NCBI GenBank assembly: GCA_951406725.2
Contig: OX597825.1
Coordinates: forward strand, 12,586,001 to 12,650,000
Direction: 5' to 3'
Origin: Octopus vulgaris
Lineage: Eukaryota
DNA length: 64,000 bases
Both the position numbers and the translations under genes were made by a program. This document shows positions 1,588 to 23,835 of this stretch, piece after piece (the stretch's first letter is position 1; each line of letters starts with the position of its first letter). The notes below the pieces were generated by a model. It did not search any database and had not been told where the DNA came from. It saw only the letters and a program-made list of their open reading frames with translations.

Positions 1588-2140
1588 ATGTACGAAGTCA
1601 TGCTTTGTTTTCGTTACAGTTAGTGCGTCACTGAACATACATGTAGCAAAAGCATGGCAAAATGTCAAGACTCTATCCAATATTTTGATCCAGAATCGGT
1701 CGCATAATTTATCCAGTAAAATCGCAAATCTGGTCTACGAAATACACCACTAAAACGTTTCGTGATCGTCTTTATCCAAGCAGTCAGAAGGTAAAGAATA
1801 GCTAAACGTTTTTCTTCGTAGAATATCTGCTTTGTTATTCCCTATAGATTAAAATTCGTAATCTACTACGCGAATATTCTTAACGTTTCAAAGCATATAT
1901 TTCAGCGTCGTATGTAGGCAATGATCTCAATAATCGAAATTTTATTACAGAACAGTCTCTATTAAATAAATCGAGCGTAATAACAACGCTGCAAATAAAG
2001 CAACTGTAATTCCGTCAGAAGGTAATTATATTGCAATCCGAGATATTGTCGTTTGATTCACAGTCATATGTTTATCTGTGGAGGTAAATGACTGGTAAAT
2101 GTTAATTATATATTTATTTCTTCCTAAAGTAAATACACGT

Positions 2141-2256
2141 GTGTATGTATGTATGTATGTATGTATGTATGTATGTATGTATGTATGTATGTATGTATGT
2201 ATGTATGTATGTATGTATGTGTGTATGTATATATGTATGTATGTATGTATGTATGT
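2141..2256. repeat. (TATG)n microsatellite; a second array lies at about 2648-2785
   Basis: Directly visible tetranucleotide arrays. They explain the MYVC/HTYI ORFs. Confidence 0.95.
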
Positions 2257-2992
2257 AGGTGTGAGGTTTGTGTTTGTGTGTGTTGTATGTTTGCTAGTGT
2301 CATTGTAAACATCGTCAATACCATTTTTATTTTCTAAAACACAATAATTTAACTGGCAGAAAAAATATTTTGAAATTAAATAGATACCACCCCGTGTAAC
2401 CTTCTTCGCTTATTTTTATGTGAACAGCAATATTTATATATTGGAGGATACTAATGAATTCTTGAGAACAAAGCAAACACCAGATTATCTACGCTGACAC
2501 TTAAGTAGGCCTCTCCAAAAGATAGCATACTTATAAATAGGCTCATTTACATGACCCTCACCAGAGAGACGAGTTTCAGAGAGCGCAACTATACCAAGGG
2601 AATATTTCTTAAGCTCACATTCAATAAGTACCGAACCGTTCAATCTTTGTATGTATGTATGTATGTATGTATGTATGTATGTATGTATGTATGTATGTAT
2701 GTATGTATGTATGTATGTATGTATGTATGTATGTATGTATGTATGTATTTATGTATGTATGTATGTATGTATGTATGTATGTATGAATGTAAGTGTGTAA
2801 TGCATACGTATATATTTGTGTGTATGTAAAAGTATATACATATAATATATATATATAAATGTTTTCTCTTTACGTTCATTTAAATACATGAGCGTATGTA
2901 TGGAGATTTTAAGAAGTGTGCTGCAGTCAACAATAATTATTACTTATTGTCTAATGCACCTTGTCTAGTTAAGATTGCAAGAATAAATACTG

Positions 2993-3056
<64 letters not shown>

Positions 3057-3066
3057 CAGTAGCAGT
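2993..3066. repeat. (TAG)n microsatellite
   Basis: Directly visible. Confidence 0.95.
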
Positions 3067-3396
3067 GTCGGTTGGAGCTGGTGGCAATCAAAGCATCTCT
3101 GACACCAATTGTGAATATATAATGATGATGTTTGTGAACGATTTCTAGTTATTGCTTTTTGCAGCTGTTCTAAGAATTATAGTCCAAATGTTATTCCTGA
3201 TTGTTATGTCTTACAGCTACATAAGCATCATAGATATCACATATTTAATTCTATTTTTCAGATTTCCTGTTGGTTTTCTGTAGCTAGAAGAAATATATAT
3301 CTAAAGGAGTTGGACAGAATTATGGAAAAAAACCTAGCTCTATAGCATCATAATTTTGAAATATCTATAAAATCGCCAAAAGCTTACTCTCTCTCT

Positions 3397-3807
3397 CTCT
3401 TTTACTCTTTTACTTGTTTCAGTCATTTGACTGCGGCCATGCTGGAGCACCGCCTTTAATCGTGCAACTCGACCCCGGGACTTATTCTTTTGTAAGCCAA
3501 GTACTTATTCTGTCGGTCTCTTTTGCCGAACCGCTAAGTAACGGGGACATAAATACTACCAGCATCGGATGTCAAGCAATGCTAGGAGGGCAAACACAGA
3601 TACACAAACATATACACACGCATATACACATATATACATATAAACGACGGGCTTCTTTCAGTTTCCGTCTACCAAATCTACTGACAAGGATTTGGCCGGC
3701 CCGAGGCTATAGTAGAAGACACTTGCCCAAGATGCCACGCAGTGGGACTGAACCCGGAACCATGTGGTTGGTAAACAAGCTACTTACCACACATCCACTC
3801 CTGCGCT
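3397..3807 (-). mobile_element. SINE family A, full length (tRNA-like head, CORE-like segment)
   Basis: Reverse complement aligns end to end with 9115-9484 and 63039-63453. It has a B-box-like GGTTCAGTCCC, a CORE-like CTTGGGCAAGT and a (GTAAAAGA)n tail. Confidence 0.9.
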
Positions 3808-4215
3808 TGTTTATTTTTTATGTTTTTTTTGTTGTTTAATATGCTTTGCTAAAATTGGGGTTTCTTTTCAGACACCATCAGAACAACGCAATTAAAATTC
3901 ATTAAAATGACAGATCTATCGAACTTTCAAGGAGGTCAATATGCACATATGTTTATCTGAGTTTATGTCTCCCTCAAATTCCATTTGCTATGATGAACCA
4001 TTGCTCCAAATTGCTCCCCAGACCATCACAGAATAACTGCCGCGTTTCGTTCGTAAATGCAAAGTCAGAAATCCAGGATCTAGAATTATCCAGTAATTTT
4101 TTATTATTTTCATCTTCTCTCTTTGTTTTCTCTCTGTGTTGATATAAAGACACTTAAGCAGATCATGGCTGCTATTTTCAGCATGGTGGTATCTCGTAGA
4201 TACCCTAATTTATAA

Positions 4216-4248
<33 letters not shown>

Positions 4249-5258
4249 AGAATACAGTGTACATTCAAACACATAAGAGGTGACCAATGATAGGACATTT
4301 GGCTCACTAGAAAGAGCAGTTAAAACTCCAAGCCTCTAATAGTTGCAATTCTGAAAGGGAATGAAAAATAAAATCATTTACCCTATTTTCCTCGACTATG
4401 CATAGTTTCTGCAATCTTATATAAATTAAAATAAAATAATTTTACCTTATATCTGGCGTTGCTTCGTCAGATATATGTATGTATTTATTTATTTATGTAT
4501 GTATATATGTATGTATGACTATTCCTGTATCTGTGTGTGTGTATGTGTATCAATTTGTTACTATTAAAAGACCCACTATTGTAACATTACTTTTGATCCT
4601 TACCACTCAAAATCATACCTTACGCCGGAAGTTCAGCAAGACTGCAGACAACTTCATTTGACATGACTTCCGGTTGAGATATAAACTTCAAACTTTGATT
4701 GTTTAGCGGTGACCTTTTTAAGATAACTATTTCAGATTTATATGAAAAGCCAAAGACAGTTTAAAAACTGAAGATCGAATGATTCTAAGAATATATGTTG
4801 GCAGGATTTCATTGACAAATCTTAACATCTGTCATTCTGTCTACATTTCTGTCATTAATTATAGCTCGAACTGAATTTATAATTACCAGCCACCATTTCT
4901 CTCAGAGTGTCTTTCTCTCTGTCTATAAGTACTTATGTATATATTTGTATCTATATCTTTTTCTTTCTCAAGTTGTCTATCTATGTTATTTTTCTTTATC
5001 GTTTTCAAAATTTTATTCTTCTGTTTGTTGATATTTATCACTCAGTTTCTCCGTACGTTACCCATCTCTCGACCTCTTTTCTCTCTCCTCACTCTTTTCT
5101 CTCCTCCTCCTCTCTTCTCTTTCCTCTTCCTTCTCTCCTCTCCCGCGCCCCCTCCCCCCTTTCTCACCCCTACCCCCCTGCTCTTCTCTCTATTTATACA
5201 CACACATATATATTTCTAAGTATTTACCAATCTCTATAATATACTTTCTTTCTTTCTT

Positions 5259-22678: not shown

Positions 22679-22839
22679 AACATTATTTACAATTGACGGA
22701 TATTTGTCCTCATCTTGTTTGTTGTTAACACAACGTTTCGGCTGATATACACTCCAGCCTTCATCAGGTGTCTTGGGGAAACTTTGAACCTGGGTTCTCA
22801 TCCCTAAAATATTTTTCAATGTTGTTGTTGTTGTTGTTG

Positions 22840-22898
<59 letters not shown>

Positions 22899-22992
22899 GC
22901 TATTATTATTATTATTAATATTATTATTATTTTTAGTTTTATTATTATTGCTATTAATATTATCATTATTATTATTATTGCTATTATTATTA

Positions 22993-23065
<73 letters not shown>

Positions 23066-23152
23066 CATTATCCTTATTCAGGTTTCTGCCTGGAATCGAA
23101 CTCAGAATCTTAGGGTTAGTATCGCGCGCTCTTAACCACTACAACATATGCC
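22679..23152 (-). mobile_element. tRNA-headed non-autonomous retroelement with (TAA)n spacer and hammerhead ribozyme tail, full-length copy
   Basis: The minus strand reads GGCATATGTTGTAGTGGTTAAGAGCG..CTGAGTTCGATTCCAGGCAG (A and B boxes), then (TAA)n/(CAA)n, then a unique tail with the HHR at 22727-22772. Confidence 0.8.
22727..22772 (-). ncRNA. Minimal type I hammerhead ribozyme
   Basis: GACAC-CTGATGA-A-GGCTG-gagtgtatat-CAGCC-GAAA-CGTT-GTGTT. Intact core, 5-bp stem I, 5-bp stem II and a palindromic AACGTT stem III region. Confidence 0.8.
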
Positions 23153-23336
23153 GAGTTCGATTCCAAGCAGTAACCTGAATAATAATAATGATAACAACAA
23201 CATCGAAAAATATTTTAGGAATGAGAACCCAGGTTAGAAATTTCCCCCAAGACACCTGATGAAGGCTGGAAGGTATATCAGCCGAAACGTTGTGTTAACA
23301 ACAATCAAGATGAGGACAAATATCCGTCAACGTAAA
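23153..23336 (+). mobile_element. Inverted, 5'-truncated second copy of the tRNA/HHR element
   Basis: Begins at the B box GAGTTCGATTCC, directly abutting the 5' end of the minus copy. It has a short (TAA)n and the same tail. Confidence 0.8.
23251..23296 (+). ncRNA. Minimal type I hammerhead ribozyme
   Basis: GACAC-CTGATGA-A-GGCTG-gaaggtatat-CAGCC-GAAA-CGTT-GTGTT. It differs from the minus copy only in loop II. Confidence 0.8.
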
Positions 23337-23570
23337 CCTGAAAGTATATACAATACTACCACTGGATAGCAAAGGGTGGAATCTGAAGGTTGACGTGCTT
23401 TATACTGTACTCTTTCTTAACAGAATATATCCTAACTTCTTTCTGTTTTCTACTCCCAAATTCACGTACAAGTGTTTGATCGGGTCGAGGCTGTAATAGA
23501 AAACACTTTCCCAAGATGTAACGCATTGGGACTGAACCAGGGACCATGTAGTTGGGAAGCAAGCCTCTTA

Positions 23571-23794
23571 TTTGTTTATTGCCCACAAGGGGCTAAACAT
23601 AGACGGGACAAACAAAGACAGACACAGAGATTAAGTCGATTACATCGACCCCAGTGCGTAACTGGTACTTAATGTATCGACCCCGAAATGATGAAAGGTA
23701 AAGTCGACCTCGGAGGAATTTGAACTCAGAACGTAGAGACAGACTGCTAAGCATTTCGTCCGTCGTGCTAACGATTCTGCTAGCTCGCCGCCTT
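23571..23794 (-). mobile_element. SINE family B, nested
   Basis: Full B sequence. The approximate TSD GCAA(G)CCTCTTA at 23559-23570 and 23833-23843 also encloses the tRNA fragment. Confidence 0.88.
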
Positions 23795-23796
23795 CA

Positions 23797-23835
23797 TCGT
23801 GGAGAATCCGGGGATCAATCCCGGTACTTCTCGCA
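23797..23835 (-). pseudogene. 3' half of a tRNA (tRNA-Ala-like), retrocopied fragment
   Basis: Minus strand TGCGAGAAGTACCGGGATTGATCCCCGGATTCTCCA-CGA resembles the 3' half of metazoan tRNA-Ala (..TGCGAGAGGTACCGGGATCGATACCCGGCATCTCCA, recalled from memory). The T-arm CCGGG/CCCGG pairs. Confidence 0.65.

Follow-up and report, generated by a model that had tools for sequence, protein, structure and literature searches.

The window analyzed here, a 64,000-nt stretch of Octopus vulgaris DNA, carries at positions 22679..23336 two hammerhead ribozyme motifs on opposite strands together with a tRNA-like segment, and the question raised by this locus is what kind of mobile element put them there. A sequence-only reading had proposed a non-autonomous SINE/retrozyme hybrid, in which a tRNA-like head and a (TAA)n-type spacer are followed by a hammerhead-bearing tail borrowed from a Penelope-like element (PLE). 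The head, the spacer, the tail, and the two hammerheads were all found where that reading had placed them. The classification was not upheld. What the locus holds is two 5'-truncated copies, in inverted arrangement, of an autonomous Penelope/Poseidon-type PLE, and the head, spacer, and hammerhead are the pseudo-LTR of that PLE itself (Table 1).

Table 1 Parts of the inverted PLE pair, in positions of the window. The last column gives the basis of the assignment or a remark.
Feature	Position	Strand	Basis or remark
tRNA-derived head of PLE pseudo-LTR, arm 1	23079..23152	-	lacks the first G of the family head; tRNA comparison
A box, arm 1	23136..23146	-	two changes from the majority of 56 aligned heads
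B box, arm 1	23093..23101	-	motif reading
(AAT)n/(AAC)n spacer separating head and tail, length variable, arm 1	22828..23078	-	sequence
Tail, arm 1	22680..22827	-	forms the 5' part of the PLE frame when in tandem; ATG 22801-22799; 3' end at the short site
Minimal type I hammerhead, arm 1	22727..22772	-	predicted cut after 22732
2-nt CC microhomology at inversion junction	23151..23152	.	sequence compared with head majority
3' part of head from B box onward, arm 2, 5'-truncated	23153..23177	+	sequence
Short (AAT)n spacer, arm 2	23178..23194	+	sequence
Tail, arm 2	23195..23336	+	ATG 23221-23223; ends before the long tail
Minimal type I hammerhead, arm 2	23251..23296	+	predicted cut after 23291

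Both window arms stop at the shorter of two 3' sites and lack the ~35-nt long tail of the family. Arm 2 had been described as fused exactly at the B box without a spacer; it does start around the B box, but not cleanly, because the junction has a 2-nt CC microhomology. The motif called A-box-like in arm 1 is an A box, although a damaged one. TTTT occurs in both arms (23213 and 22809), upstream of the hammerhead, through a CC-to-TT change that is absent from the family majority, and its presence in both arms may reflect either a shared template variant or gene conversion. Immediately to the right of the pair, at 23480-23800, lie two more SINE-like pieces that belong to other families and recur in many of the fetched loci. 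At family tail positions ~135-160 (window 22680-22697, minus strand) there is a 9-nt repeat whose copy number varies while the reading frame is kept.

In order, each window hammerhead parses as stem I (5 bp), CUGAUGA, an additional A, stem II (6 bp), and GAAA-CG-U; stem III is a palindrome of two bases, and the cut position, H17, is U. Loop II is the sole difference between them, as had been noticed from the sequence, and the cut predicted earlier after 23291 on the plus copy agrees with our parse. [quoted passage not shown] The differences are that H17 is U here and that cleavage of the present motifs is predicted from sequence. Dimer cleavage had been considered as well; since the two window hammerheads lie on opposite strands, no cis dimer is possible. 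Opposite-strand hammerhead pairs 100-700 bp apart have already been recorded in schistosomes (PMC4209133, in the excerpt). Between the window and loci of related PLEs the type I core is the same and the paired stems differ, which is covariation. The core is kept in 119 of 187 arms, and H17 is U in 180 of 187. Across the family, core conservation is 0.972, compared with 0.958 elsewhere, and matches the neutral-decay expectation. Rfam returned no hammerhead or tRNA match, either at gathering thresholds on the whole window or in E-value mode on the locus, L050, and L382, and the minimum free energy fold does not take the hammerhead form (z -1.7 and -2.1).

The tRNA-like character of the head was evaluated by comparison with genomic tRNAs. 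The family head scored 64 against a shuffle mean of 35.5, and the window head scored 51 against 34.9; both were above 500 of 500 shuffles, which argues against a chance resemblance. Among 30 sampled genomic tRNA loci, a set that covers part of the isotypes, the closest to the family head was tRNA-Arg. The family head, taken as the majority of an alignment of 56 heads (L028 and L031 dropped as duplicates), retains the A and B boxes, which were called against the box consensus, and has lost the cloverleaf. ARAGORN found no tRNA at the locus, the head does not fold as a tRNA (z +1.5; Rfam and ARAGORN negative), and by inspection its acceptor and T stems are broken. In having a tRNA-related head with A and B boxes, the family resembles SINEs. 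Other repeats are often found inside the (AAT)n spacer, with head-tail distances of 0.3-1.3 kb (L033, L038, L185, L188, L196, and L359).

A 20-mer from the tail has 12,406 exact matches in the 2.8-Gb genome, compared with 0 for the reversed control, which likewise speaks against chance, and the family is present in runs of three organism labels. Copies diverge from the majority sequence by 5-6% in the tail and 7-8% in the head. The genome-wide linkage of head and tail on which the sequence-only reading depended was confirmed in most loci fetched by either part. For a survey of ends, 100 arms were taken in order along one contig, and 98 remained after two were dropped as a segmental duplicate. 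An inverted partner is present at the 5' junction in 56 of these 98 arms. The 3' ends form two clusters ~35 nt apart, with 55 arms ending at tail positions 136-165 and 42 at 184-199, and one arm runs into the frame. In a set of 41 inverted pairs, in which L290 is entered twice and some flanks are microsatellite, a single arm carries the long tail in 35; neither arm does in six (the window pair being one of these), and in no pair do both. A TSD of at least 8 nt was found in 24 of the 41 pairs versus 4.8% of mismatched flanks; the absence of a TSD had been reported for the window pair and holds there, but it does not extend to the family. The two arms of inverted pairs showed no excess of shared derived changes over random pairs (0.22 vs 0.18, P 0.31).

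An inverted partner together with a 30-40-nt tail at one end only is the pattern of EN+ PLEs, and inverted partners and one-sided tails are given as PLE features in PMC8557442 (as excerpted). The inverted pair had been taken for a PLE signature from the window alone, and the arm counts bear this out. In Anolis Poseidon, reverse transcription is primed at two internal sites bounding the tail, ORF sequence is required downstream on the template, and hammerhead cleavage is dispensable in vitro (PMC11167929, in the portions available). The insertion pattern of the octopus family fits the Anolis priming model.

The element that carries the head, spacer, and hammerhead is almost certainly a Penelope/Poseidon-type PLE. 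On one copy, RNA reads have a conserved loose end upstream of the head; exact matches to this junction number 267, and the sequence on its upstream side is the C-terminal end of a GIY-YIG frame. A protein-only search with that frame returned 4,356 candidates, and among the best 30 of these by protein alone, the tail is present in 28, the head in 25, and both in 23; no locus lacks both. Mobilization by a PLE RT/GIY-YIG protein, as had been proposed, is supported. The longest open frame among 150 scored is that of L243, which spans 569 aa of RT and GIY-YIG; head, spacer, and hammerhead come after it, and on its 5' side lies a truncated copy in inverted orientation. Its RT catalytic motif has a substitution, and its RVT_1 match is just below the cut-off (27.7 vs 29.6 bits). 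RT motifs, a CxC between GIY-YIG-like motifs, and two His were recognized by eye in the PLE frame, as in EN+ PLEs; the Pfam GIY-YIG model gave no score on L243 or on the related element L382.

The order of the unit is head, spacer, ATG, hammerhead, tail, the rest of an 838-codon RT/GIY-YIG frame, 29 nt, and the next head. The 838-codon frame, continuous in a majority built from natural copies, begins at the ATG inside the tail, crosses the hammerhead, and stops 29 nt before the next head, which places the head just upstream of the PLE start codon, between the preceding stop and the next frame. A search for the tail at the 3' end of an autonomous PLE ORF had been suggested; the tail does occur there, but so do the head, spacer, and hammerhead, 29 nt after the stop. 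In the upstream walk, the 5' portion of the frame was found to follow immediately on the end of the tail, with the upstream repeat cut short at varying points, as in a pseudo-LTR with partial tandems; this tail-frame junction is partly selected, because the search query contained 30 nt of tail. A near-complete head lies directly upstream in only one of 30 ORF-start loci (L360), a point against a promoter role of the head, and in one more it is set apart by a 1.3-kb insertion. The Zn-finger-like motif between RT and EN is absent from L243, as in the Penelope/Poseidon clade, and present in a Neptune-type family. A quick, unfinished tree, made up of sequences other than named Penelope/Poseidon references, separates the PLE from that Neptune-type family. 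Based on the RT and GIY-YIG frame, the linkage of head and tail, the start of the frame in the tail, and the lack of a Zn-finger linker, we therefore conclude that the feature is the pseudo-LTR of a Penelope/Poseidon-type element. The closest protein relatives of the PLE frame are 55-68% identical. Two insect metagenome runs have 7-10% of words in common with the family, prokaryote genome contigs yielded three distant fragments, and viral contigs yielded no relative.

A young Neptune-type PLE, found by a Pfam GIY-YIG search, was considered as the partner and rejected; no tail similarity was present in 30 + 20 loci except for one separate insertion in L097. This Neptune-type PLE (L091-L096; e.g., L092:779, 2245-4590, 5566) has many intact 781-aa frames, an upstream open frame of 333-479 aa, a tandem-repeat 3' UTR, and a hammerhead-like motif with a U3-A8 core variant.

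The abundance of short copies could be explained differently, by a separate non-autonomous SINE/retrozyme lineage whose copies give rise to further copies with the PLE protein acting in trans. ORF-bearing copies are far fewer than short ones, with 7 of the 98 arms reaching beyond 100 nt upstream of the head; many short copies keep both boxes, and the hammerhead core is kept at the frequency given above; the CC-to-TT variant common to both window arms also favors this explanation. However, at all tail positions tested the majority base in 67 unselected short arms agrees with that in 19 ORF-linked arms, and the two groups are alike in divergence (5.4 vs 5.9%), which is not what is found where a separate lineage shares only the 3' tail. 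A short-copy variant at tail position 19 that had appeared to separate the two groups arose from selection by likeness to the window and was gone in the unselected set (P 0.19). Short copies also lack, because they end at RT start sites, the downstream ORF sequence that the Anolis Poseidon template needs (PMC11167929, in the same portions), and no tandem arrays were present among the sampled arms. With 100 tail words along one contig, 15 neighbors were found less than 1.2 kb apart, and all 15 were divergent and none tandem. Tandem copies, which the sequence-only reading had suggested counting, were accordingly not seen among these neighbors, and the family does not have the layout of a non-LTR retrozyme. 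An independent lineage is improbable, and the short copies are probably cis by-products of the coding PLE that are dead on arrival.

We consider it somewhat probable that the head is, as the sequence-only reading held, a Pol III promoter, here an internal one of the PLE. The head sits where, according to a review (PMC6765202, as excerpted), the promoter of a PLE should lie, immediately 5' of the start codon. Of the 35 arms that reach the head start, 24 stop within -15..+5, an interval picked after the data were seen; for comparison, stops number 17 of 52 across the rest of the head (71 nt) and 4 of 11 across the 85 nt that follow. Genome-wide exact words agree with a cluster of 5' ends at the head start, with counts of 12,406 in the tail, 5,491 in mid-head, and 1,013 just upstream of the head. 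A run of four or more T is a Pol III terminator. The sense strand of the 2,647-nt unit has no such run versus 4.6 expected (P 0.01), and natural copies have 53 versus 249 expected. The corresponding counts are 8 versus 4.2 expected in the Neptune-type PLE frame of the same genome and 193 versus 135 expected in 32 related frames, which were chosen for long matches from 79 metagenome loci. The T4 signal is modest. Runs of four or more G are also absent from the unit (0 vs 3.3 expected), and a synonymous-codon shuffle of a 532-codon part gave P 0.15 for the T4 depletion.

The same PLE could instead carry the head as a passenger, i.e., an old tRNA or simple-SINE insertion, with transcription by Pol II or host read-through and with RT stalling or fold-back at a hairpin as the source of the 5' cluster. 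Fold-back could account for some of the clustering, since a natural 5-bp hairpin overlaps the head start (-7..+5) and inverted junctions make up 14 of the 24 clustered ends. Junctions are likewise drawn to another palindrome close to the hammerhead cut, where four of six are inverted; in that region 5 of 23 tail-internal 5' ends lie at most 3 nt after the predicted cut (P 0.001, post hoc and confounded by an overlapping palindrome). The T4 depletion has a P of 0.01 and is accompanied by the lack of G4 runs, and Penelope of D. virilis has a TATA-less, LINE-like promoter (PMC2377424, in the excerpt). On the other hand, the remaining 10 clustered ends were scored as non-inverted, and several of these fall at -3..+1. 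The boxes are kept although the cloverleaf is lost, no GT-AG pattern was seen by eye in 21 internal-deletion junctions, and the same layout with low T4 recurs in L382, which was not grouped with the family in the quick tree. On this evidence, we regard a passenger head as unlikely. It is very improbable that the head serves as a processing signal, with a longer transcript being cut at +1 by RNase P or some other enzyme of tRNA processing; the ends do cluster at the position equivalent to tRNA +1, but the head does not fold as a tRNA and its acceptor and T stems are broken, as described above.

L382, a metagenome contig, contains at 1976-5022 an intact tandem Poseidon-type PLE with two units identical over 2,231 nt and an open frame of 901 codons, the protein of which is 38% identical to that of the octopus PLE. 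Each of its pseudo-LTRs has an A box, a B box, AAT repeats, and a hammerhead. The 2,791-nt unit has two T4 runs and no T5 run, and its frame is alone among 32 matched frames in having no T4. The L382 head is weakly tRNA-like, with 5 of 500 shuffles reaching its score and no Rfam match. The loose box pattern also matched L389/L390, inside the coding region, and low-threshold ARAGORN on PLE relatives gave noise only. In the unfinished quick tree, L382 was not grouped with the octopus family, and T-rich relatives without boxes were closer. This suggests that box capture by L382 may have been independent of this family.

RNA reads of organism B showed no pile-up of ends, were equal on both strands, and gave no start, end, or strand signal. 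From the ORF end to the head, depth rose only ~1.5-2-fold in organism B RNA and ~1.2-1.4-fold in DNA contigs, measured on a diverged reference and not a copy number, and a five-fold depth step at the head was not seen in the RNA. The RNA pattern fits passive transcription of old copies or unstranded libraries and is neutral on Pol III. No circular RNA joint was present among the best-supported joints listed, beside which there were 147 and 122 further joints. In runs X23 and X24, on L002 and L171, an identical loose end occurs in 785-880 and 382-536 reads; much of the read set appears to come from a single locus, i.e., a copy inside an expressed transcript of organism B.

The boldest account of these observations is a tentative one, to which we give rather less than an even chance. 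An autonomous coding PLE would have captured a tRNA-Arg promoter and be transcribed end to end by Pol III; T-run terminators would have been purged from its 2.6-kb unit, and its protein would be translated from uncapped or ribozyme-cut RNA. Tens of thousands of SINE-sized cis copies would have been produced along the way, and L382 would have followed the same course independently. On the promoter reading given above, which we hold more probable than this account, a tandem master would be transcribed from the head, likely by Pol III. The PLE protein would nick the target and prime reverse transcription within the RNA at one of two sites ~50-90 nt past the hammerhead, in the way demonstrated in vitro for Anolis Poseidon. 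Priming near the RNA 5' end would give a complete SINE-sized head-to-tail copy of ~290 nt plus spacer, and priming one unit further down would give ORF-bearing copies. If two target strands were primed at the two sites, inverted pairs with the long tail on one arm would result.

To our knowledge, autonomous retrotransposons are generally held to need Pol II (or Pol I co-transcription), and Pol III is held to serve short non-coding parasites. If the promoter reading is true, a PLE that carries a tRNA-derived promoter and a frame free of terminators would depart from the Pol II rule, its hammerhead would gain a context in which the cap is irrelevant, and SINE-like repeats would have a route to arise within an autonomous element. 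Repeat libraries may also misfile such PLE ends as SINEs. If the head is a passenger, the family is a PLE family of ordinary kind, decayed and very abundant. What sets it apart is the tRNA-derived head in a PLE pseudo-LTR. The octopus tRNA-derived SINEs OK, OR1, and OR2 reportedly go back to Ohshima and Okada 1994. As cited in PMC4824008 and PMC4758252 (both in part), OK/OR1/OR2 are tRNA-derived repeats, probably from the same animal group, and OR1 and OR2 are CORE-SINEs; they are set beside this family by description only. The short form may already be filed as a SINE, or the family listed, in Repbase, Dfam, SINEBase, or octopus repeat libraries. Two octopus repeat papers mention Penelope and, in the text examined, no hammerheads (PMC13282606 and PMC8967140), and a full-text literature search found, in the passages it returned, no description of a tRNA-derived promoter in a PLE pseudo-LTR.

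Anolis carolinensis Poseidon (PMC11167929) has the same single RT and C-terminal GIY-YIG frame starting in the pseudo-LTR at or near the hammerhead, as well as partial tandems, a tail on a fraction of ends, and inverted truncated partners. Judged by the description in the portions available, the octopus PLE differs in that its pseudo-LTR includes, ahead of the start codon, a microsatellite and a tRNA-derived segment with A and B boxes, and in that its sense strand is without T4 runs. The nearest precedents for the head are the Cassandra, Helenus, and Ajax TRIMs (TRIMp3; PMC10886601) and the schistosome Sm-alpha repeats (review PMC6765202), both as excerpted. The TRIMs likewise have a small-RNA-derived Pol III promoter in a retrotransposon terminal repeat, but they are non-autonomous LTR elements, whereas the carrier here is a protein-coding PLE; the autonomous partners of Cassandra-type TRIMs must, as argued in PMC10886601, use Pol II. 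In the Sm-alpha/Sj-alpha repeats a Pol III promoter is followed by a hammerhead, comparable to the head and hammerhead here, but these are non-coding tandem repeats, whereas the promoter-like head and ribozyme described here are in an autonomous PLE and the copies are inverted. Animal non-LTR retrozymes (PMC7229834; bioRxiv 10.64898/2026.07.22.740005; both in part) are short hammerhead-bearing PLE derivatives, as are the short copies here, but they are defined by tandem units, and the window locus is not tandem. A head-less derivative of the same PLE does fit that definition. In L352, L358, and L365/L373 (around 1530-2060), a recurrent internal deletion joins frame position 123 to tail position 14, which gives a head-less unit of ~280 nt that is retrozyme-like and, in L365, tandem.
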